From Pirellulales bacterium (GTDB lineage Bacteria; Planctomycetota; Planctomycetia; Pirellulales; PALSA-1355), in the NCBI GenBank assembly GCA_963733035.1, contig CAVTBU010000005.1, positions 2,432,001-2,496,000 of the forward strand: a DNA stretch of 64,000 nt, written 5' to 3'. Below the pieces are notes generated by a model that was given only the letters and a program-made list of their open reading frames with translations, ran no database searches and was not told the origin of the DNA. Both the position numbers and the translations under genes were made by a program. Of the stretch, positions 1-10,531 are shown in pieces (position 1 is the first letter of the stretch; each line of letters opens with the position of its first letter).

Positions 1-218
1 TGCGAATTCGCGGCCGGCAACCGGCGCTGTACGAAGCCGCCGTGCCGCGCGAAAAAGTGCAAGGCCGGGCCGCCCAGAGCTTGCTCAAGCGGTTCTTCGG
101 TGGTTCGGCAGAGCAGCTTGTCATGCGCTTGGTCGAGGACGAAAAGCTTTCCCCGGAAGAATTGGCCCGCCTGCGTAAGAACCTATCACGCGGCCGGCCG
201 CGCGGGAGGAAACCATGA
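1..218 (+). CDS. BlaI/MecI/CopY-family repressor, 3' part (5' end outside window)
   Basis: Frame 3 reads ...LYEAAVPREKVQGRAAQSLLKRFFGGSAEQLVMRLVEDEKLSPEELARLRK..., the BlaI C-terminal dimerisation motif. Its TGA (216-218) overlaps the ATG of the M56 gene. Confidence 0.88.
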   Translation, partial: RIRGRQPALYEAAVPREKVQGRAAQSLLKRFFGGSAEQLVMRLVEDEKLSPEELARLRKNLSRGRPRGRKP

Positions 219-3200
219 ACGGATCTTTGATCGCATTGCTAGTGGTTGTTTCATTACTACTGACTGTCAGTCTGATCGCGGACGACTGCCTGTCACGGCG
301 AAGGCCACTATTGATGTCCGCGCTGTGGAACGGCTCGTTGATTGCCCTACTGTTAGCACTGCCCACGGCGATGTTCATGCCGCGCTGGGAGATACCGCTG
401 CTGCCGCCAGTCGAATCGCATGGCGAGATGGCAGCCACCAACGAACCCGTCGTGACGGATGACCTCGTCGAAGCTCAGCCGATATACGTTCCACCGACCT
501 TCGACGTGCAGCCACTACCGGCAACAATCGCCGTGCCGACGGTTTCGAGACCATCGCCGATAGATTGGACTCGCATCATCAGGCGCGGCCTGACGGTCGC
601 CTACGTGCTGGGGGCGGCCGTCTCGCTGGTGCGACTGGCAGCCAATCTGGTCGCCGTAACGAAATTACGAGACGCGGCACGCCATTTGGAACAAGCCACG
701 TGGCGATCGCGCCTGGAGGTTTGGCGCGCGAAAACCGGCATCTGCGCCCGACCGGATTTGTTATTCAGCGAGCAAGTCTCCGTACCGATTACGCTCGGGT
801 GGCGGCGTCCAGCGATCGTGATTCCTCAAGACTTGATCAACCGTGCTCGAGCGGAGGCGATCGATGCGATCCTGGTGCATGAGCTGGCACATGTGCGGCG
901 CGCCGATTGCGCATGGCAATTCGTCGAGCATCTGGTGCACGTTTTTTATTGGTTCCATCCACTTGCCTGGCCAATCGGCCGCCGAATCGCAGCGGTGCGG
1001 GAAAGAGCTTGCGACGACTTTGCCATCTACCTGCTCGCCGATCGCCGGGCCTATGCCGAGACGTTGCTCGCCATGGCCACGCGTATGGCCTCGCGACACA
1101 GGCTCACCCTGGCGATGGCCGTGGTACGGACAACAAAGCTCGAAAGGCGATTGACCGCCATTGAATCGAGCCGCGGCGCAGCGCTGGTCCGCCTAGGCGG
1201 CTGCACGCGAGCCGCACTGACCTTGGGGCTTTCGGCTGTCGTTGCCGCCGGGCTGGTCGCGCGGCTGGTTCATGCCGAGGCTGAGCCGGCGCCGCCGCGC
1301 GGCGAAGCAATTGCGTCCGCTGAGTCGGACTCGGCCCCTCCAATGCAGCCCGAGGAGAAACAGCAACGCGAGAGGGATACTCCGCTTGCTGGAGAGAAAG
1401 AGTCTGCATCGGCGAAGGACTACACGTTCACCGACAACGTCGTAAACAAGCTTTCGCAGCGAAAACGCGACGCGGCAAGGCGTCTCTTCGTCGATCTCCT
1501 TAGGCAGCAGTACGACCAGGCCGTGGAGCTGTTTTCGCCGCAATTGCGCGAGACTCTTACCGGCGAGAGACTCGCGCGGCTCTTCGACAAGCTGGCCAAA
1601 CAATTTGGCAAGCTTCAGCCGCGGGCAGTGCTCTACCTCGGCCGGCTTGGCGACAAGGAACTTCCCGATCTAATGCTCATCTGGGGACAAAAGCATTTCC
1701 TCTCCGTGCGCCTGCTGTTCGATGATCAAGACAAGATCGCTGGCTTGTGGATCGGCAGCAACTCCTTGGCCGCCCAGCCCGATCAACCACCGATCAAGGT
1801 GGGCGAAGATGAACGTGAGTTCACTACCGCCAGCATGATTGCATTTGGCGAACCCATGATGGCGCTAGTCGCCAAAGCCAACCTTTCGCTTATCGTGGAG
1901 TGGTTCGATGCCAGCGGTAAGCAGTTGACATTTGGTGAGCCGCCCGGGGTTTTTGTCTCGTTCTTTCGCGCCATGCACGACGGCGAACCCGCTCAAGCAA
2001 GCGACTGGAACGACACCGTCGACCACATCCGCTGGCGACACATCGCCAACGAATCGCCGCTGGAGAATCGGGCGGAACACCTGGCGCCAGGGACCTACCG
2101 CGCGTTTTGGTCGCGCGTCAGGGACGCGGGTTATCAACTGAGCGACCCGATCACGCTCGACGGCTCGGTGCAAGCCACGGTCGTGAAGACGACGGAGCAG
2201 CCAGGTGCGAAAGTGATCGTTAAGCTCGTCGACGATCAGACTGGCAAGCCCATCCAAGGCGCCGACGTGCGCGTCACCAGCGACGACCCACGAATTCCGT
2301 CCTACCGCTACGGCAGCAGCGAGTTCCCGGAAGCAACGATCACGTTCGACGGCATGCTATCGGGCCGCCATCGCATCGATGCCCATCGACCGGCAAAGCA
2401 GCCCGGCGAGAACGACTACGAACAAGTCGAGACGCCTGTCTATGTCGAGCTTGAGCGCGGAAAAACCTCCGAAGTCACGATCAAGCTGCGTGGCAAGCCC
2501 GCGGCAGATCAAGGTCTCAATGCTCGCTTACGGTGGATCGCCACCGGTAAAGTCATCGATTTGGAGGGACGCCCCATCGCCGGCGCAATCGTGCGGGCGG
2601 CAACGGGCGAGGGCACGCTTCTCGGCGGAGGATCGACGACGACCGACGCCGACGGGCGCTTTCGTCTGCACTTCGGCGAGGGGATTTGGAGCGACAATCC
2701 CGTGAACTTGCAAGTGGCCGTGCTCTCTGCGTCCAAGCCCGGCTACTTCGAAACCAACCTGAACCGGCAGGGCGGCCTCGCCATGGCACGCAGCCAACCC
2801 GCTGAAGACGACCTGCGGCACTGGGGTGGTCAGAAAGTCGTCTTTCTGCCCGGCGAGCCGCGCGAGCTGAACTTCGAGCTGGCCCGGGCGGCGACCATTC
2901 GCGTGGAGTTGGTGGACGCAGCAGGAGAAGACCTGGCCGAGGCGAGCGTTTCGCTATCGGATCAGGCAAAGGAGTGGAACGGCGTGGCGTCGGGTGAAAC
3001 CAGTCGCGGCGGCGATTACACCTTTGAGAATGTGCCGGTCGGCAGAGCGTCGTGGATTGCCGCGACCGTGGACAAAAAGCTGAGTGCCCGGTCGCTGCCG
3101 TTCACCTTGCCGCGCGCGGAAAACTACCGCATGAAATTGAGATTTCGGCAGGACGAAGCCAACGATCTGAATCTGCTGGAGGTGCAATCGATCACCAGCG

Positions 3201-3925
3201 CAGCGGGCGAGGAAATCAAGGACAAGGTCCTGGGCGATGACCCCTTGGCGCGGCCGCCCGTCACCGATGCAGACCAGGCCGAAGCTCGCGACCTCCTCAA
3301 GAAACTACTGGACGCCAACTCCCCGTGGTGGTTTGCGCGGCCGCCAGCGGAAATCGCCAGCATTCGCTACGACTTCTGCTTCGCCAGCGGTGATCGCCGC
3401 AACTATGCGTTCGAGCAGGACCAGGAGAAGTTCGATCATTGGGTCGCGCATGGATTGTCGTATTCGTCGGCAACCGCCATGCTCTGCGCGAACCGCAACG
3501 CGGTGGCCTTCCGGCTGGTGGAGATTCAGCCCAACGTGGTTCGGCTGGCCTATACGACGACGACTCGCTGGGGATACTCCGTCGGCAACGGCGTGCAGGG
3601 AACATGGCGCGGCTTTCAATCGGGTGGCGTGCGCGATGGCATCCTCTCGATCGATCCGCGGCGGTGGGTCCCCTTGGAGCATAAGTTTGGCGATATGCGC
3701 GAAGTGTTTTCCGACTACGTCAAGCTGCCCTCCGGCCAGTGGGCGCCGCGGAGCGTGCAAATCATCGAGGGAGATCGCCCGAAGTTCGATTGGAAGTTCG
3801 ATCTCTACGAGCCGGGCGTCTGGCTGTTCTCTTCGAGTCGCGACACGCGGAACCCCGACGCACCGCCGATCGCCCGGCTGGAGAACGTAATGATCAACGG
3901 CGCTCCCGGAAAACTCATCAACTAG
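215..3925 (+). CDS. BlaR1/M56-family membrane metallopeptidase with large extracytoplasmic region (DUF3887-like and carboxypeptidase-regulatory-like domains)
   Basis: N-terminal TM helices, HELAHVRRAD...YWFHP...RERACD M56 motif, a DUF3887-like segment (QYDQAVELFSPQLRE...DKIAGLWI) and GKVIDLEGRPIAGA...TDADGRF repeats. Translationally coupled to blaI. Confidence 0.9.
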   Translation: MNGSLIALLVVVSLLLTVSLIADDCLSRRRPLLMSALWNGSLIALLLALPTAMFMPRWEIPLLPPVESHGEMAATNEPVVTDDLVEAQPIYVPPTFDVQPLPATIAVPTVSRPSPIDWTRIIRRGLTVAYVLGAAVSLVRLAANLVAVTKLRDAARHLEQATWRSRLEVWRAKTGICARPDLLFSEQVSVPITLGWRRPAIVIPQDLINRARAEAIDAILVHELAHVRRADCAWQFVEHLVHVFYWFHPLAWPIGRRIAAVRERACDDFAIYLLADRRAYAETLLAMATRMASRHRLTLAMAVVRTTKLERRLTAIESSRGAALVRLGGCTRAALTLGLSAVVAAGLVARLVHAEAEPAPPRGEAIASAESDSAPPMQPEEKQQRERDTPLAGEKESASAKDYTFTDNVVNKLSQRKRDAARRLFVDLLRQQYDQAVELFSPQLRETLTGERLARLFDKLAKQFGKLQPRAVLYLGRLGDKELPDLMLIWGQKHFLSVRLLFDDQDKIAGLWIGSNSLAAQPDQPPIKVGEDEREFTTASMIAFGEPMMALVAKANLSLIVEWFDASGKQLTFGEPPGVFVSFFRAMHDGEPAQASDWNDTVDHIRWRHIANESPLENRAEHLAPGTYRAFWSRVRDAGYQLSDPITLDGSVQATVVKTTEQPGAKVIVKLVDDQTGKPIQGADVRVTSDDPRIPSYRYGSSEFPEATITFDGMLSGRHRIDAHRPAKQPGENDYEQVETPVYVELERGKTSEVTIKLRGKPAADQGLNARLRWIATGKVIDLEGRPIAGAIVRAATGEGTLLGGGSTTTDADGRFRLHFGEGIWSDNPVNLQVAVLSASKPGYFETNLNRQGGLAMARSQPAEDDLRHWGGQKVVFLPGEPRELNFELARAATIRVELVDAAGEDLAEASVSLSDQAKEWNGVASGETSRGGDYTFENVPVGRASWIAATVDKKLSARSLPFTLPRAENYRMKLRFRQDEANDLNLLEVQSITSAAGEEIKDKVLGDDPLARPPVTDADQAEARDLLKKLLDANSPWWFARPPAEIASIRYDFCFASGDRRNYAFEQDQEKFDHWVAHGLSYSSATAMLCANRNAVAFRLVEIQPNVVRLAYTTTTRWGYSVGNGVQGTWRGFQSGGVRDGILSIDPRRWVPLEHKFGDMREVFSDYVKLPSGQWAPRSVQIIEGDRPKFDWKFDLYEPGVWLFSSSRDTRNPDAPPIARLENVMINGAPGKLIN

Positions 3926-3964
3926 TTGACGAGCCGCGCGTTTGGCGGGCTGCGGCGAACTTGT

Positions 3965-3993
3965 TTGACAGTACCTGTCGACCCTGCTACAGT
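3965..3993 (+). promoter_or_regulatory. sigma70-type promoter upstream of the riboswitch
   Basis: TTGACA-N17-TACAGT, about 15 nt before the riboswitch P1 stem. Confidence 0.75.
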
Positions 3994-4007
3994 ACCCCGC
4001 ATAGCGT

Positions 4008-4212
4008 GCGTTGGTGGTCGGCGTTTGCCTCTGAAACGTCGACAAAACAGGGAACTCCGGTGCAATTCCGGGACGGCCCCGCCGCTGTAACCGAGTGCTT
4101 AAGGAAGCTGTTTCTTAGCCATTGTTGAGCTGGCCGAAGTCGCAAGACTTTGCCCGCGTGCAACGAGAAGGCCAGTCTTCCCCAGCTCGGGAGTCAGAAG
4201 ACCTACCAACGC
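4008..4212 (+). ncRNA. Cobalamin (B12) riboswitch
   Basis: AGGGAACTCCGGTGCAATTCCGGGACGGCCCCGCCGCTGTAA core, GCCATTG...GAGAAGG, and a B12 box GAGTCAGAAGACCTACC. P1: GCGTTGGT 4008-4015 pairs with ACCAACGC 4205-4212. P2 hairpin at 4017-4043. Confidence 0.95.
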
Positions 4213-4392
4213 TTGACTGACGGAAGTTTTCGCGAGGGACGAGAGCTTTCGACCGTTCGTAGGCCTCAATTAGGACGCCGCTAATCGTCGGCTTGTGCCT
4301 TGTAACCCAACGCGGTTTGGCCGTCTGACCGTACGCGCTTGCGCGCATCTGTCCGCCGTCCCCGCTCGTTGCCGTTGGCATGCGCCACGACG

Positions 4393-5271
4393 ATGCGCTC
4401 ATCGTTTGCCGTGACTCCGTCCGCAAGCAATCAACGTCGCCGAATCGCCGCCTTCACCCTGGTGGAGCTGTTGGTCGTGATCGCGATCGTCGGGCTGCTC
4501 GTGGCGCTGTTGCTGCCGGCGGTGCAGGCCTCACGCGAAGCCGCCCGGAGGACGAAGTGCCTGTCGAATCTGCGTCAACTCGGCGTGGCGCTGCAAACGT
4601 ATCACGACGTGTTTCACGTCTTCCCGCGGGGCGGGTGGCCGGCCGCAAGCGCCAACATCAGTTGGACCGCTTCGATCCTGCCCCACTTGGAAGAGCAATC
4701 GCTCTACGATCGTCTGAATCGCACCGTGCCGTATACCGACGTTACGAATCGCGACGCCGGCCAGACGCCCTTGGCCCTGGTGCTGTGCCCTTCGTCGCCC
4801 AAAGAGAGCATCTGGAAATCGTCGGCCGATTTACCGGCTTCCGCGTCGAATCGTTTTGCACGCACCGATTATGGAGCGATCAGCGGCGAACGCGGACTGC
4901 GGTCGCCCACGGCAAGCAATGTGCCAGAGCGCGGCGTCATGATTCTGGAGCGCAACATCTCCCTGTCGGGCATCCTCGACGGCGCTTCGCACACGATTCT
5001 CATTGGCGAGGCGCCCGAGGGAATCCATTCGCTGTGGATCAGCGTTCGCAATCTTTACGACCAGTCGGGACCGATCAACGCCCCGGCGACATATGCGCCC
5101 GCCTTCGTCTTCTTCGACTACGGTCAGGAACTGAGCAGCTATCACCCAGAGGGTGCGCAGGTGCTATTCGCCGATGGCTCCGCGCGGCTGCTCGACAAAG
5201 AGCTCGACGTGCGGACTCTGGCGGCGCTCTGCTCCCGCGACGGCGGCGAAGCGATCGACGGTGACTTTTGA
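4393..5271 (+). CDS. DUF1559 prepilin-type N-terminal cleavage/methylation protein with C-terminal H-X9-DG motif
   Basis: AFTLVELLVVIAIVGLLVALLLPAVQASREAARRTKCLSNLRQLGVAL at the N-terminus and SYHPEGAQVLFADGS at the C-terminus. Start chosen at ATG 4393. Confidence 0.93.
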   Translation: MRSSFAVTPSASNQRRRIAAFTLVELLVVIAIVGLLVALLLPAVQASREAARRTKCLSNLRQLGVALQTYHDVFHVFPRGGWPAASANISWTASILPHLEEQSLYDRLNRTVPYTDVTNRDAGQTPLALVLCPSSPKESIWKSSADLPASASNRFARTDYGAISGERGLRSPTASNVPERGVMILERNISLSGILDGASHTILIGEAPEGIHSLWISVRNLYDQSGPINAPATYAPAFVFFDYGQELSSYHPEGAQVLFADGSARLLDKELDVRTLAALCSRDGGEAIDGDF

Positions 5272-5397
5272 TCGGGTGGCAACGATGTATTTCTCAATCT
5301 CCAACACACACACGATGAGGCAGGTGGCGCGTCACCTAGCTCGTATTGCTTGAACTTCATTGGCAACTTACTCACACCGCGCGGAGTGCACCGAAGC

Positions 5398-6312
5398 ATG
5401 AAAAAATTGATAAGAAACTATCTGAGGAGCGGACTGCTGTTGGCGTCGACGCTGGCGGCGCTCGGGCAGGCGGCACGGGGCGACATTGTGAACTTCGACG
5501 ATCTTCCACTGGGCCCCAACTCCCATTGGAGCGGGCCGGATCCGACCGGCGTGGATCAGCCCGACCCGTACGGCGGTCCGCTGCCGGTGAAAGTCGGCAG
5601 CTTCACCAGCGGCGGCGTAAAATTCGGCAACGAATACAATCCCAACTACGACAGTTGGGGCGGCTTCGCCTATTCCAACGATACCGACAACACGACGGTC
5701 GGTTACGGCAATCAGTTTGGAGTCTACGCCGGATCGGGAAATGATCCGGGCGGCGATAACTTCGGCGTGGCGTTTGGCTACGTCGACAACTTCAGCCCGT
5801 CGGACCCGAACCAGCTCGACCAACTGCCGTATCTCGAGTTTCCGCAGACGGCGAATCCCCAGTCCATTTACGTCACGAACATGACCTATGCCGCAACCAC
5901 GATGCGCGACGGAAACCCGTTTGCCAAACAATTCGGCGGAGCAAGCGGCAACGACCCCGATTGGTTCAAGCTGTCGATCTACGGAACCGATGCACAAGGG
6001 AGCCTGGTGCCTGGATCCGTCGAGTTCTATCTGGCCGACTATCGCTTTGCCGACAACGCCAGCGACTATATTCTCGACAGTTGGGCGCCCGTCGACCTAT
6101 CAGCGCTGGGGAGTGTGACGCGATTGTATTTCAATCTTTCGTCAAGTGACTCCGGGCCCTTCGGCATGAACACGCCGAGCACGTTTGCGATCGACGACTT
6201 GCAGTTCATACTCGTGCCGGAACCAGGCACAAGCGTCTTGGCCGGCCTGGGATTGTTGGCGCTGGCATGGGCCGGCAGCCGCGGGCGGCGACCCCGTCAT
6301 CCTGCCGCCTGA
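5398..6312 (+). CDS. DUF4465-domain surface protein with PEP-CTERM anchor (BtuJ-like, putative B12-binding)
   Basis: Signal peptide; SWGGFAYSN, YVTNMTYA, DWFKLSIYG, VEFYLADYRF, WAPVDLSALG and SSDSGPFGMNTP motifs; ends VPEPG + TM helix + Arg cluster. Confidence 0.88.
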   Translation: MKKLIRNYLRSGLLLASTLAALGQAARGDIVNFDDLPLGPNSHWSGPDPTGVDQPDPYGGPLPVKVGSFTSGGVKFGNEYNPNYDSWGGFAYSNDTDNTTVGYGNQFGVYAGSGNDPGGDNFGVAFGYVDNFSPSDPNQLDQLPYLEFPQTANPQSIYVTNMTYAATTMRDGNPFAKQFGGASGNDPDWFKLSIYGTDAQGSLVPGSVEFYLADYRFADNASDYILDSWAPVDLSALGSVTRLYFNLSSSDSGPFGMNTPSTFAIDDLQFILVPEPGTSVLAGLGLLALAWAGSRGRRPRHPAA

Positions 6313-6436
6313 CCTCTAACCAACAAGTCACCTGCCGCCTGGCAACGGCCACGACTTCCCGCGAGTTAATGGCCTGATTCTCAAGTTTGTTATTTTTCTA
6401 CTCACATCGATGTTAATGTTCTAACGGCCAAAATCA

Positions 6437-6465
6437 TTGACTTCCCGCATCGGTGGGGGTAGTTT
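6437..6465 (+). promoter_or_regulatory. candidate sigma70 promoter in AT-rich intergenic region
   Basis: TTGACT-N17-TAGTTT. Confidence 0.45.
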
Positions 6466-6746
6466 AAACGCGTGCGACATGAACCAAGGCCATGTATCAA
6501 GACGCCGATGAAGCAAGCCGGTGACAATCATCCATCGCGATGAGCTTGTCGACGGACTCTCTTTCGTAACTCCCGCCGGTCGCTACGGCCCGGTGAGCAG
6601 TTCCACCTGGTAGCATTTGGGCCATTTCTCTGCGCGGGCACGAATCGACGGCTTCGTGCGTCATTCTGGCCCGAATGATGCGCACGGAAAGAGAGTGGAT
6701 ATACCCATGCACCAGTTTGCTTTTGGCGGCGCAGGGACCGTTTGTC

Positions 6747-8770
6747 ATGAAAGAACATTTCATTCTCGCCGCTTTCGTTTTATCCCTTTTTGTCGGGCGC
6801 GGGCCCCGGCCGCGGACTACAACTGGAAATCGCCGGTCTCTGGCAGCGCCGGTACGGCGAGTAATTGGACGCCAACCGGCGTGCCAGGGCAGTCGGACAG
6901 GGCAATCTTCAACCTGGGTTCGGCCGGCTACACTGTTTCACCCGGAAACGCGTTCGTCGGTCAAGTCTACGTCAACAACGACACCGTGACTGTCACTCGT
7001 AGCCTCGTTGACGCTGTTGAGCCCAACCTGCCGGCCATTCAACTCGGCAACAACTCAGGTGACATGGCCAAGCTAACATTGACCGACAGCGTGACGTTGA
7101 TGGGAAACGAAATCTGGATCGGCGCCCAGGCGAACACGCAAGGCACGATTACCATCAACCAGGGCATGTTGTCGACATCGACGTTTCAACCCGGTAACTC
7201 GCCCGCGCAGATTGTCGTGGGCGCCGCTGGGACAGGAACGCTCTCCGTACTGACGGGCACCGTGCAGGAGATTGGTACGACAATCATCGCCAGAGACGCC
7301 CTGTCGCACGGAACTTTCAGCTTGGATGGCAGCGACTCGCTCTACTATTCACTGGGATCCGGATTGACCGTCGGGCAGGGGGGAGTCGGAACGTTCTCAC
7401 TCACGCAGGATTCAGTCGCCTATGTGGCGGGGAACCTAATGGTGGGAGAGGATGCCGGATCAAATGGCACGATCAACGTCGCAAGCCAATCGACGCTGAC
7501 CTCGGCTTTGGGAAGCTATGTCATGCAATCGGCCACGATCGGCGGGGCGGGAACCGGCGAGCTTGACGTTACGGGCGGGGGCAAAGCCTACCTGCTGGGT
7601 CCCCTGGTCGTGGGCCAGGCACAAGGTTCCGAAGGAACGGTCATCGTCGATGGATCGCAATCGACCCTCGCACCATTTAGCTCCGGTACGCTACCCAAAT
7701 TATCGCTTACCGTGGGTGATGCCGGTGCGGGAACGATGTCGGTACTAAACGGCGCACAAACCTCACTGGGCGGCACGATCACAATCGGTAATAGTGCCGG
7801 CAGCATGGGCCATTTCATCGTCGACGGCGCCGGCTCGCACGTGCAATCGGCACAATTCGGCAGCCAATCGGTCGACAAGATGATCGTGGGAGCGTCTGGC
7901 AACGGAACGCTCTCGGTGACGGGGGGAGGTGTCGTCGACCTCATCAATGCCAACGTTTATGTCGCGCAAAACGCCGGCTCCATGGGAACGATCGAGGTCG
8001 CCTCGGGCTCCCAGTTGATCGCCAACAACTTGGACATCGGCGCCGTGGGAACCGGCCTGGTTTCGATCGGCAACGGTAGTAAGGTCAGAGTCTGGACCGG
8101 GCCCGTGGAGAATCACGCCGGAGGTACGATCGACCTACAAGGCGGAACGCTCCAACAGTACTTTGACAACACGAACGTCGAAGTCCACAACTCCGGCACA
8201 CTCGACAACAACGGTACGGTGATCGGAAACGTCACCAATTTGCCAACAGGAATTGTGTCTGGTTCGGGCACGATCACCGGAACGCTATCCAACCAAGGGG
8301 GCATGCTCGCACCAGGCAACTCACCGGGAACGCTGTCCGCCGGTTCGCTCGATTTCCAATCCGGCACGCTGCAGATTGAAATGAACCGAGCAATGGAAGC
8401 CGCCGGCGGTCCCGCCGGTTGGGACCTGCTGAACATCCAAGGCACGGCGGCACTCGCTGGCCCCCTCCAAATCGAACTCGTTTCGTTGTCGCCAAACGAT
8501 CAGCCCGGAAACGTCTACGATTTCAACCCTTTGCAAGACTATCAATGGCTCTTCCTGAACGCCAGTGGAGGAATCACGGGCTTCGATGCCAGCAGTTTTG
8601 CGATCGACTTATCGCATTTCTCCAATGCCTATTCGGGCCAATTCTTTGTGACGGAAGTCGGTAACGCGCTTTTACTCAACTACAGCGTGCCAGAACCGGC
8701 GACGCTGGTGCTGGCCGGCGTCGGACTGGTGCTGTTCGCAGGGGCGGCCAGGCGCCGCCGACGGTCTTGA
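6747..8770 (+). CDS. PEP-CTERM surface protein with T5SS/PEP-CTERM-associated Gly-rich repeats (frameshift near 6800)
   Basis: Signal peptide MKEHFILAAFVLSLFVG is in one frame and the mature part AADYNW... is in another. Repeats of the type LxVGxxGxGTLxVxxGG, then LAPGNSPGTL, ending VPEPATLVLAGVGLVLFAGAARRRRRS. Confidence 0.85.
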
Positions 8771-8899
8771 ACGCAAACCCGCTTCAGGTAAGCGGCTTTA
8801 CTTGGACAACCCAGTGCCAACAAATTACGCCAAGCCCAAATGCAGCCCCGGGCCGGCAGCCGATTGACAGCGCGCCATCGGCTCGGATTCAATCGAGTC

Positions 8900-9700
8900 A
8901 TGAGCTCTTCGCGAGACCACAATCGGCAAGCCTGGGACAAGCGCGCACGCGCCGGGGCACGCTTCACCAAGCCGGCAGCGGACGAAGAATTTCGCGATCC
9001 ATTGGCCGCAGTCGATCCCTCCGGCTGGCTCGGCAGCAGTATCACGGGCAAGCGCGTGTTGTGCCTGGCGGCCGGCGGCGGCCGGCAGAGCGCGCTGTAT
9101 GCCGCGGCCGGCAGTACGGTGACGGTGGTCGACATCAGCGGCGAAATGCTCGCCATCGATCGCGAAGTGGCAGCCGAGCGCGGCCTGTCGCTGCGAACCG
9201 TGGAAGCTTCGATGGACGATCTCTCGGCGCTCGCGCCGGCGAGCTTCGAGATCGTGATCCATCCGGTGAGCACGTGTTACGTACCTGACGTGCTCAAGGT
9301 CTTTCGCGAAGTGGCGCGGGTGCTGGTTTCCGGCGGCGTGTACGTGAGTCAGCACAAGCAACCGACGAGTTTGCAAACCTCGGTCGAGCCAACCGCACGA
9401 GGATACGAGGTCGCCGAGCCGTATTATCGCCGAGGTCCGCTGCCGCCGGTGGTGGGCAGCTCGCATCGCGAGGCGGGTACGCTCGAATTTTTGCATCGCT
9501 GGGAAGAACTCGTCGGCGGAATATGCCGCGCCGGCTTCGTGATCGAAGACCTCGTCGAACCGGTGCGCGCCGACGAAACCGCAGCCCCGGGAACGTTCGC
9601 GCATCGCAGCCAATACGTAGCCCCCTACGTGCGCATCAAGGCCCGCCGCCGCGGCGACGCGCAAGTGACCGCCGAGCCAGCCAAAGTCTGGTTGCCGTAA
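8900..9700 (+). CDS. Class I SAM-dependent methyltransferase
   Basis: VLCLAAGGGRQ motif I, VVDIS, FEIVIHPVS and ARVLVSGG. Confidence 0.9.
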   Translation: MSSSRDHNRQAWDKRARAGARFTKPAADEEFRDPLAAVDPSGWLGSSITGKRVLCLAAGGGRQSALYAAAGSTVTVVDISGEMLAIDREVAAERGLSLRTVEASMDDLSALAPASFEIVIHPVSTCYVPDVLKVFREVARVLVSGGVYVSQHKQPTSLQTSVEPTARGYEVAEPYYRRGPLPPVVGSSHREAGTLEFLHRWEELVGGICRAGFVIEDLVEPVRADETAAPGTFAHRSQYVAPYVRIKARRRGDAQVTAEPAKVWLP

Positions 9701-9871: not shown

Positions 9872-10531
9872 ATGAGAAACATTCTGGCCATGGTAGCAAT
9901 GGCGGCGGGGATTCTACTGGGAGTTTCAGACACGACGAACGCATCCAGTTTAGTGCTTGCGTCACAGCAATTAACCGTGGACAGCGACGGAGACGCCACG
10001 CCCGATTTATTCGACAATGCTCCAGGCACCGCAAACAACCAGGCGGACGCCGACGCGGACGGAATTGGCGACATCATCGATCCCACACCGAATGCCTCGA
10101 ACCCAAACTTGGGTGATCCTGGTTTCATTCTTGCTCCGGCCATGCCGATCGTGGCAGGTGCGAACGCGAACTTCGATTATCTTGTGTTGGTTACTCCGCC
10201 GGGAGGATGGGGCCGAATTGAACTCGATTTCGATCAGGACAACGTGGCCGACGCCGTCTTTTTCGGGCCGCTGACGGCCGTCATGGACACGATCAGCATC
10301 CCGGCCGGTTTATTCGTGGACCCCCTGTGGGATCTCTACACGCCAGGCACGTACACCGTTGCCATGAAGGCCTACGCTCCAGGCATGTCGTCTGCCAACT
10401 GGGCACACCCGTACGTGACGGTGTTGCCGGTTCCTGAGCCAAGCACTTTGCTTCTGGCAACCCTGGCCTACATCGTCACGATGTTCGGATGGACACGCCG
10501 TGCGTCGCCTTGCAGGGAATTTCACCGCTAA
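9872..10531 (+). CDS. Small PEP-CTERM protein with thrombospondin type-3-like Ca-binding repeat
   Basis: Signal peptide, DSDGDATPDLFDNAP...NQADADADGIGD, and VPEPST + TM helix. Confidence 0.8.
   Translation: MRNILAMVAMAAGILLGVSDTTNASSLVLASQQLTVDSDGDATPDLFDNAPGTANNQADADADGIGDIIDPTPNASNPNLGDPGFILAPAMPIVAGANANFDYLVLVTPPGGWGRIELDFDQDNVADAVFFGPLTAVMDTISIPAGLFVDPLWDLYTPGTYTVAMKAYAPGMSSANWAHPYVTVLPVPEPSTLLLATLAYIVTMFGWTRRASPCREFHR

Follow-up and report, generated by a model that had tools for sequence, protein, structure and literature searches.

What does a gene for a pilin-like protein do between a B12-sensing riboswitch and the gene for a member of a B12-binding protein family? The question is raised by positions 3965 to 6312 of a 64,000-nucleotide stretch of DNA from a Pirellulales bacterium (hereafter the window), in which a promoter-like site and a Cobalamin riboswitch are followed on the forward strand by a DUF1559 prepilin-like gene, here called gene A, and a DUF4465 gene with a PEP-CTERM tail, here called gene B. 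We propose that they constitute a B12-repressed corrinoid-capture operon, and we give this reading, with the mechanism as proposed below, a probability of roughly 0.55. The confidence is not spread evenly over its parts. It is very probable that the pair of genes serves B12 acquisition under riboswitch repression, and it is possible, at rather less than even odds, that the pilin-like protein performs the envelope-crossing or hand-over step equivalent to that of BtuB. The B12-linked capture module is real; the mechanism of its pilin part is what we infer.

The initial annotation of this locus had described a near-consensus promoter and a full cobalamin riboswitch, and both descriptions hold. 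The aptamer occupies positions 3995-4224 (+), where the Rfam covariance model RF00174 matches over its full length, B12-box region included (model positions 1-189 of 189, untruncated), with a score of 86.9 bits (E 4.6e-20; gathering score 31.5). It is the sole Rfam family match within the 64 kb window and, with 150 of 327 first-look candidates scored, the single Cobalamin riboswitch match in the whole source assembly (G000; 6.65 Mb, 10 contigs, 92.3% complete), in which an independent nhmmer riboswitch profile likewise returned the window site only. Two nucleotides 5' of the aptamer, at 3965-3993 (+), a consensus scan predicts a sigma-70-like promoter site composed of TTGACA, a 17 nt spacer and TACAGT with an extended -10 TG, matching 10 of 12 consensus positions; promoter-like sites number two in the region 3800-6700, against a mean of 0.7 in shuffles. 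Directly 3' of the aptamer lies a hairpin (approximately 4220-4251, +) with the loop GCGAGGGA, for which RNAalifold on seven orthologous leaders gives 14 pairs, seven of them with changes on both sides. It may represent the P13/L13 element of an expression platform, whose GCGAGGGA loop could kiss the C-rich L5 loop. No terminator- or promoter-like sites were found on the + strand from the riboswitch to the end of gene A.

Gene A (4393-5271, +) encodes 292 amino acids (aa) from an ATG at 4393 that was picked by eye, an in-frame TTG at 4339 being also possible. Its product begins with a class-III type leader, MRSSFAVTPSASNQRRRIAA, which runs on into FTLVELLVV (Ala at -1, Glu at +5), and its earlier description as a DUF1559 prepilin-like protein was confirmed by PF07596 (DUF1559; E 1.3e-42, 147.2 bits versus a cut-off of 23.3), PF07963 (N_methyl; E 6.6e-06, 25.9 versus 21.2 bits) and TIGR04294 (H-X9-DG; 29.6 versus 19 bits), with H251 and D261-G262 conserved in the homolog alignment. 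The GspG equivalog TIGR01710 remains below its cut-off (37.3 versus 88.85 bits) and matches only residues 20-73, the N-terminal helix, and in a comparison of the sequence profile with the Protein Data Bank (PDB) only this helix (residues ~8-75) matches solved pilins. The AlphaFold2 (AF2) model (predicted local distance difference test, pLDDT, 86.8; predicted template-modelling score, pTM, 0.82) consists of a helix at 23-74 and a beta-rich head. Foldseek gave no PDB match to this model at E <= 0.001, and the top 17 rows of a VIA-align structural scan are all pilins or pseudopilins, but at low Z, the first of them being 6xxd_A (Z 5.0, root-mean-square deviation 3.4, 121 residues aligned) and the best matches comprising PilA4, EpsG, ComP and PulG. 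Ordinary pilin heads are about half as large (the gene A product has 292 aa, the targets 111-208 aa). As modelled, the protein appears pilin-shaped with an unusually large head, and its predicted structure speaks neither for nor against B12 binding. An Atlas search with the head returned DUF1559 clusters only, and the databases hold more than 120 gene A homologs at 52-79% identity, among them a 58%-identical protein in Aeoliella mucimassa.

Gene B (5398-6312, +; 304 aa) had been annotated as a DUF4465 protein with a PEP-CTERM tail, and the profile check upholds both halves of that assignment. PF14717 (DUF4465) matches along profile positions 2-176 of 176 (E 2.8e-52, 178 bits versus a cut-off of 25), preceded by a Sec-type signal peptide recognized by eye at residues 1-28, and the beta-jellyroll domain is followed by a PEP-CTERM match (PF07589, 22.2 versus 20.7 bits) at residues 273-292 (VPEPGTSVLAGLGLLALAWAGSRGRRPR), the tail reading VPEPGTS...RRPR. 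With phmmer the protein matches 9hmu at E 8.8e-27 and BtuJ1 (9fct) at E 1.5e-16, and Foldseek places its AF2 model (pLDDT 93.6) with 9hmu_A (E 3e-19, template-modelling score, TM, by target 0.87), 9fct_B (E 1.8e-16, TM 0.84) and 9i2l_A (E 4.4e-14), so far as a model can show it the augmented beta-jellyroll fold of solved B12 complexes. PMC13398666 reports B12 binding by the surface lipoproteins BtuJ1 and BtuJ2 of Bacteroides thetaiotaomicron and by six more divergent DUF4465 members, among them D5EK51 from the verrucomicrobium Coraliomargarita akajimensis and a protein of the planctomycete Mucisphaera calidilacus. A tyrosine in the DE-loop helix is kept in gene B, where VTNMTYAA aligns with VTNTTYDY of BtuJ1 and VTNTVYAY of D5EK51; on our reading of the alignment it corresponds to Y146 of that paper. 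Y164 is invariant in the DUF4465 alignment.

The association of riboswitch, prepilin-type gene and DUF4465 that the initial annotation had taken as a module proved to be a conserved, same-strand synteny. Of 401 sampled Planctomycetota genomes, six contain DUF4465, at seven loci in all, and all six loci other than that of the window have an RF00174 match and an adjacent prepilin-type gene, located upstream, downstream or divergently. A phylum survey comprised the best 80 of 598 DUF4465 relatives in genome records (58 from Planctomycetota, 6 from Verrucomicrobiota and 16 from elsewhere), with riboswitches marked by an nhmmer profile that recovers 18 of 20 Rfam-called control sites. Of the 58 planctomycete loci, 53 have a riboswitch, 41 have a prepilin open reading frame (ORF) no more than 3 kb away and 38 have the two together, and where the flanks are full the riboswitch is found at 34 of 34 loci and the prepilin ORF at 26 of 34. 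The corresponding figures are 4/6 and 4/6 in Verrucomicrobiota and 11/16 and 2/16 in other phyla, the last two loci both being labelled only 'uncultured bacterium'. The order riboswitch-pilin-DUF4465 is seen in 20 loci of the 80-locus survey and recurs, within the window's own order, in G330, G516, G450 and G462. Cultured strains with the same architecture are Rhodopirellula baltica BR-MGV, R. sallentina SM41, Stieleria tagensis, Novipirellula herctigrandis and Maioricimonas sp. JC845.

The riboswitch-prepilin pairing extends well beyond DUF4465 loci. A riboswitch is present in 140 of 151 Planctomycetia genomes, mostly exactly one, and 50 of the 222 matches in these genomes were examined as loci. 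A prepilin motif starts 79-322 nt 3' of the aptamer at 27 of the 30 that score best, and the genes downstream in 20 riboswitch-pilin loci include DUF6580, Peripla_BP_2, a Diphthami_syn_2-type PP-loop protein, FecCD and, once, BluB-CobQ-CobO-CobT. The Diphthami_syn_2-type PP-loop ATPase and a BtuF-like Peripla_BP_2 protein recur 3' of the riboswitch-led pilin gene in L085, L086, L092, L093 and L103, and in several riboswitch-pilin operons the BtuF-like protein starts without an obvious signal peptide. In a locus from another class (L009) the order is riboswitch, DUF4465, a further gene X, prepilin, BtuF, ABC ATPase and FecCD. In L011 two Cobalamin riboswitches stand back to back and diverge, at 6596-6721 (-) and 6926-7130 (+), one leading a DUF1559 gene and the other a DUF4465-PEP-CTERM gene; the one on the minus strand matches only model positions 47-167.

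The X protein is secreted, measures about 290-375 aa with GPY...DFAVFEN...GGFDLDAVG motifs and often a PEP-CTERM or dockerin tail, and travels with DUF4465 and the prepilin gene in many loci (examples are L009:5200-6327(-), L010:5567-6472(+), L013:4993-6030(+) and L123:3607-4473(+)). It belongs to no Pfam family and has no copy in G000. In the Phycisphaerae-type loci L166, L167, L177 and L188 it is apparently fused behind DUF4465 in ORFs of about 605 aa. A relationship of X to BtuH was considered and found no support by sequence, a profile of three X proteins giving nothing below E 0.17 against PDB sequences; its Atlas structure neighbours are unnamed clusters, some of them from Bacteroidota and containing DUF4430 or DUF4465 as well. 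DUF4465 domains are also found in giant proteins of 1500-2000 aa from Novipirellula, Neorhodopirellula and Rubripirellula, which combine several of them with dockerin repeats; in L164, L165, L185, L187 and L196 such proteins lie directly 3' of a riboswitch-led pilin gene and contain two to three NTPAYF motifs each. A fusion of DUF4465 to DUF1559 was not seen: among the best 120 of 397 longer DUF4465 proteins, PF07596 or PF07963 was found in none and a prepilin motif in 0/120.

Phylogenetic trees of the riboswitch- and DUF4465-linked prepilins, in which 47 ordinary DUF1559 paralogs served as background (G000 contributed 18, two related genomes 29), separate two clades into which none of the 47 falls. 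Clade II comprises 26 rows, namely gene A, 19 of the 20 prepilins from 'riboswitch-pilin-DUF4465' loci and those of G330, G239, G156a, G516, G450 and G462; its support is 99 (FastTree) and 96 (IQ-TREE SH-aLRT), and it is nested among ordinary DUF1559. Clade I, long-stemmed and divergent, comprises 48 rows: 25 riboswitch-led pilins, all 21 from 'riboswitch-DUF4465-X-pilin' loci (three of them verrucomicrobial) and two from other-class loci (support 98 by FastTree; SH-aLRT 99 in the first tree, with 26 rows). It holds most riboswitch-led pilins of Planctomycetia. Judged by these memberships, gene order maps onto clade. The nearest relatives of gene A are those of L123, a Pirellulales metagenome-assembled genome (MAG), and L127, a MAG labelled Planctomycetaceae, at no more than 65% identity, and both loci also carry X. 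The riboswitch-led DUF1559 genes of L019 and L021, which have no DUF4465, have an unstable position, inside or sister to clade II with IQ-TREE and outside it with FastTree; the DUF1559 gene of L122 falls among the background paralogs.

These data bear on the simplest alternative, that the gene order reflects coincidence or regulation only: the riboswitch would act on gene A alone, gene B would be transcribed from a promoter of its own, and no function would be shared. The 126-nt spacer between them (5272-5397, +), in which no terminator- or promoter-like site was found on the + strand, would accommodate this idea, as would the sheer number of DUF1559 paralogs, of which the two related genomes have 63 and 115. 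However, G000 has its single riboswitch, its single DUF4465 match (gene B) and a DUF1559 gene from a dedicated clade side by side. Since one of about 25-33 DUF1559-like ORFs in 6.6 Mb sits directly between the genome's one riboswitch and its one DUF4465 gene, chance is not credible here. The same arrangement, moreover, occurs in the 20 survey loci and several further genomes at spacings down to overlap, and a DUF4465 gene that is not 3' of the pilin has its own riboswitch (L011, L012 and L014). We consider a coincidence extremely improbable.

A Pfam scan of the flanks of the surveyed DUF4465 loci covered 76 of 88 ORFs of at least 480 aa (11 that overlap the DUF4465 match were omitted, as was L165:1-2217) and found TonB-dependent receptors at 0 of 58 planctomycete loci, 1 of 6 verrucomicrobial loci and 8 of 16 loci from other phyla, one of the eight being a Plug match only. 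The pilin-like gene and the TonB-dependent receptor thus occupy the same place in different phyla. The initial annotation had noted that neither btuB nor btuFCD is present in the window, which is correct, and genome-wide we found no match for FecCD, the BtuC-type permease, and no full-length TonB-dependent receptor in G000; Plug is matched just once, in a 489-aa ORF of another contig without a barrel match, and five full-length TonB-dependent receptors used as queries match only the plug region of that same ORF. Among B12 users the genome encodes the B12-dependent methionine synthase MetH in full, a B12 radical-SAM protein and, together with MeaB, an MCM-type B12 subunit, and MetE, CbiC, CobN, BluB, CobQ, CobO and CobT gave no match in this 92% complete assembly. 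Because MetH-type B12 users are present and the markers for synthesis and uptake were not found, the organism looks like a B12 auxotroph, judged by gene content one that is dependent on MetH and that does without the textbook uptake genes.

The mechanism that we propose starts from low intracellular B12, under which the riboswitch would allow the promoter at 3965 to express two exported proteins. Gene B would be exported by the Sec pathway, sorted to the cell surface through its PEP-CTERM tail by exosortase, and would capture corrinoid there; two Exosortase_EpsH matches (215 and 195 bits) are present in G000. Gene A would be processed by prepilin peptidase, for which there are matches at two loci, and then assembled by pilus or pseudopilus machinery into a pilin- or pseudopilin-type element, which would take over the step done in other phyla by BtuB and relay corrinoid received from the surface binder in the direction of the inner membrane. 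Unlinked genes would then provide for its import into the cell. The candidate inner-membrane B12 importer is a pair on the same contig, in which a gene for a DUF4430 protein lies directly 5' of the genome's only gene for a DUF6580 membrane protein (C5:1122919-1124100; L099: 1453-2007 and 2080-2691, - strand). DUF4430 is described, in PMC4350170, as a domain at the C-terminus of transcobalamins; we found no mention of DUF6580 in the literature searched and detected no riboswitch beside the pair. G000 also encodes one Peripla_BP_2 protein. A complex prediction for the DUF4465 domain (29-272) and the DUF1559 head (44-292), each with its alignment, gave a score of 0.01 versus a mark of 0.32 and counts neither way.

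In its most far-reaching form the proposal would be that B12 enters Planctomycetes and some Verrucomicrobia along a route based on a pilus or pseudopilus instead of a TonB-dependent receptor, and that a dedicated prepilin-like protein assembled via a secretin takes the corrinoid from DUF4465 or X across the outer membrane, by analogy with competence pili and DNA. We advance this version tentatively, and regard it as on the unlikely side. A more modest role is conceivable for gene A, that of a membrane-tethered periplasmic B12 binder which feeds the inner-membrane importer and crosses no outer membrane, its prepilin N-terminus doing no more than anchoring it in the inner membrane or letting it assemble into a short surface structure, in the manner of the pilin-signal sugar-binding proteins of the Sulfolobus 'bindosome'. 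The nomenclature of the family leans this way, as the Pfam short name of DUF1559 is SBP_bac_10, its members are termed 'solute-binding proteins' in one paper (PMC4807772) and the NCBI name of the 58%-identical homolog is 'DUF1559 family PulG-like putative transporter'; clade I genes, too, are often directly 5' of the inner-membrane components DUF6580 and FecCD, and the head of gene A is about double the ordinary size. On the other hand, several such operons already encode a BtuF-type Peripla_BP_2 protein, which would make a second periplasmic binder redundant, the complementary distribution with TonB-dependent receptors points to the outer membrane rather than the periplasm, and among the matches listed in the low-Z structural scan there is no likeness to periplasmic binding proteins. 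We judge either variant of the tethered binder to be unlikely, and less so the hand-over role at the outer membrane.

The predicted fold and the N-terminus of gene A would suit a dedicated pseudopilin of a type-II-secretion-like machine that exports DUF4465, X and small lipoproteins and has no contact with B12. Such genes are always accompanied by secreted proteins, whether DUF4465, X or the small lipoprotein-like ORF right after clade I genes, and G000 encodes six secretin matches in addition to its prepilin peptidases. Nevertheless, DUF4465 and X have a PEP-CTERM sorting signal of their own and G000 has two exosortases, a lone pseudopilin gene with no ATPase, platform or secretin genes nearby is atypical of type II systems, and the same cargo is found in proteobacterial loci that have a TonB-dependent receptor instead of such a gene. 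A secretion function accordingly appears to us distinctly improbable.

Several observations weigh against the capture operon as we have proposed it, some of them regulatory. No expression platform could be defined for the window's riboswitch, single-sequence folding of the leader being no better than that of shuffles (z +1.5), no intrinsic terminator having been found on the + strand across 3995-6312, and the leader beyond the hairpin (about 140 nt to the start codon) showing no conservation across the seven orthologous leaders. Co-transcription of gene A and gene B across the 126-nt spacer is only presumed; in orthologous loci the spacing ranges from overlap to about 260 nt, or the additional X gene lies between. 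With the assembly 92% complete, genes that we count as missing could lie in its unassembled part. No known B12 binder is among the listed structural matches of the gene A head, a result that excludes no binding fold.

Other such observations concern how tightly the components are linked. Most riboswitch-led prepilin genes in Planctomycetia have no DUF4465 nearby, and the role of the pilin cannot, therefore, depend on DUF4465. The idea of a module of pilin and DUF4465 put forward in the initial annotation is supported by the conserved synteny and by the dedicated clade of gene A, but DUF4465 is not the core partner, being mostly absent beside riboswitch-led prepilins. In a second set of 20 riboswitch loci, 14 of them chosen for kinship (same order) and six from one riboswitch-rich family, DUF1559 is the first gene in only four and the second ORF in one. 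The other first genes are DUF4465-PEP-CTERM (4), TonB-dependent receptors (2), ribonucleotide reductase (2) and MetE-like genes (4, judged by N-terminal sequence, not Pfam); in the remainder FecCD is downstream in one and two are unassigned. Adjacency of DUF4465 and DUF1559 can also arise by chance in paralog-rich genomes, as the DUF1559 genes beside DUF4465 in L014 and L158 fall among the background paralogs. Finally, in G504 and G432, which belong to the window's order and are exactly the two control sites missed by the nhmmer profile, a Cobalamin riboswitch stands ahead of a complete TonB-dependent receptor (L115:362-2518(-) and L116:469-2484(-)), so that BtuB-type uptake has not been altogether lost in Planctomycetia.

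The last of these points concerns the binding site of gene B. Its HI-loop motif is NTPSTF, with Thr instead of the Tyr of NTP(A/S)YF, and this B12-contacting tyrosine (NTPAY) is kept in 97% of homologs according to PMC13398666 and in all six other sampled planctomycete copies. The claim that BtuJ-type DUF4465 proteins bind cobalamin is well founded in publications on the family; gene B itself lacks the published key tyrosine. Among the 120 nearest database homologs the residue is Tyr in 81, Thr in 16 and Phe in 12, with Thr and Phe concentrated among the closest matches, and a non-Tyr HI loop is found at 6 of the 20 loci with the window's gene order versus 1/21 and 2/39 in the other architectures of the 80-locus survey. 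This spread among close homologs and window-type loci indicates that the Thr is a lineage feature and not an error, and it means that high-affinity B12 binding is not assured for the window's DUF4465 subgroup. Because this subgroup has lost a B12-contacting tyrosine, it must be asked whether the module handles another ligand, such as a corrinoid precursor, another cobamide or another tetrapyrrole, with the riboswitch only reporting B12 status. The clustering of non-Tyr residues in the pilin-upstream architecture would fit, and the markers tried revealed no corrin-ring or lower-ligand genes in G000, which leaves the imported form open. Yet the DE-loop TY tyrosine and the rest of the NTP motif are kept, the gene B model superposes on the B12 complexes with TM 0.84-0.87, MetH requires a complete cobamide, and a corrinoid precursor would be useless to a cell that has no CobS/CobT-type genes. 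A ligand other than B12 seems to us more improbable still than a secretion role, and corrinoid binding by gene B remains part of the capture operon as we propose it.

The surroundings of the operon can be described briefly. Upstream, a 1236-aa BlaR1-type M56 peptidase with CarboxypepD_reg domains is encoded at 215-3925 (+) and ends 40 nt before the promoter-like site; a BlaR1-type-like gene also lies 5' of the riboswitch in the related locus L127 and probably in L138, showing the neighbourhood to be syntenic in close relatives. Downstream there are two more PEP-CTERM proteins (6617-8770, + and 9872-10531, +), one of them with T5SS/PEP-CTERM-associated repeats, and a methyltransferase (8840-9700) between the two. 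An AT-rich stretch around 6440 has by eye a promoter-like TTGACT, and the downstream PEP-CTERM genes are for this reason probably a separate unit.

We know of no function for the DUF1559 family. It is the largest paralog family in planctomycete genomes; Planctopirus limnophila has 68 members, of which two are essential (PMC10632474). A riboswitch is a ligand-specific label, and the two riboswitch-linked prepilin clades, with B12-binding domains and B12 transporter genes as neighbours, give DUF1559 its first concrete, testable ligand. The ligand-linked function that the initial annotation held out for the family as such can be proposed for these two clades and not for the family as a whole. The pattern of receptors bears on how Planctomycetes move a 1.3 kDa cofactor across the outer membrane. 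If the most far-reaching form of our proposal is true, the tens to more than 100 DUF1559 genes that a genome contains would encode a set of pilin-type capture proteins with different substrates, and that set would explain the uptake of large molecules with few or no TonB-dependent transporters. The cultured strains that have the same architecture make the question open to ordinary genetics and biochemistry.

The Cobalamin riboswitch and B12 binding by DUF4465 are already known. New are the dedicated pilin-like partner in place of a TonB-dependent receptor, the predicted PEP-CTERM anchoring of a DUF4465 binder, the division of the prepilins into two clades in step with gene order, the loss of the tyrosine from the HI loop of the window's DUF4465 subgroup and a genome that looks like that of an auxotroph relying on MetH alone, with DUF4430-DUF6580 as its candidate importer. 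The terms pilin, DUF1559, PEP-CTERM and Planctomyc do not occur in PMC13398666, nor do Planctomyc, Verrucomicrob and pilin in PMC13616437, and a link of pilins or DUF1559 to a B12 riboswitch or to DUF4465 was not found in the literature searched, subscription-only papers and supplements being outside its scope. With BtuJ1, BtuJ2 and D5EK51 (9FCT, 9I2L and 9HMU) gene B shares the Pfam family, the fold, export, a position in a locus with a riboswitch at its head, and conservation of both the NTP motif and the tyrosine of the DE loop. It differs from BtuJ in its predicted anchor, which is of the PEP-CTERM/exosortase type and not a lipoprotein export signal, and in the change from Tyr to Thr in the HI loop, and from the BtuJ loci in that it has no BtuB, BtuG or BtuH nearby and is paired with a pilin-like gene.

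B12 uptake of the Escherichia coli type relies on a riboswitch-controlled btuB leader, the TonB-dependent BtuB and BtuFCD. As in this classical system, a Cobalamin riboswitch in the window lies in the 5' leader of genes for envelope proteins that would acquire B12, and the sampled DUF4465 loci of Proteobacteria and Bacteroidota do have a TonB-dependent receptor beside the binder; the window, in contrast, has neither such a receptor nor a BtuC-type permease, and the binder has a prepilin-like gene beside it instead. With type IV pilins and pseudopilins (PulG/GspG/EpsG; ComP, ComGC) gene A shares the methylation motif with Glu5, and, in its model, the long N-terminal helix and a beta-sheet head, whereas its head is roughly twice as large, it has a C-terminal H-X9-DG motif, Ala rather than Gly stands before the cleavage site, no assembly genes are adjacent, and a Z of at most 5.0 denotes likeness at the level of a common arrangement only. 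There is precedent in competence pili for passage of a substrate across the outer membrane by means of a pilus. The 'bindosome' of Sulfolobus provides a second point of comparison, in which sugar-binding proteins with pilin-type (class III) signal peptides are placed at the cell surface by pilin-assembly machinery. It belongs to another domain of life and has no sequence relation to DUF1559, for which binding is a proposal only; what the two have in common is the idea of a substrate-binding protein with a pilin-type signal peptide.

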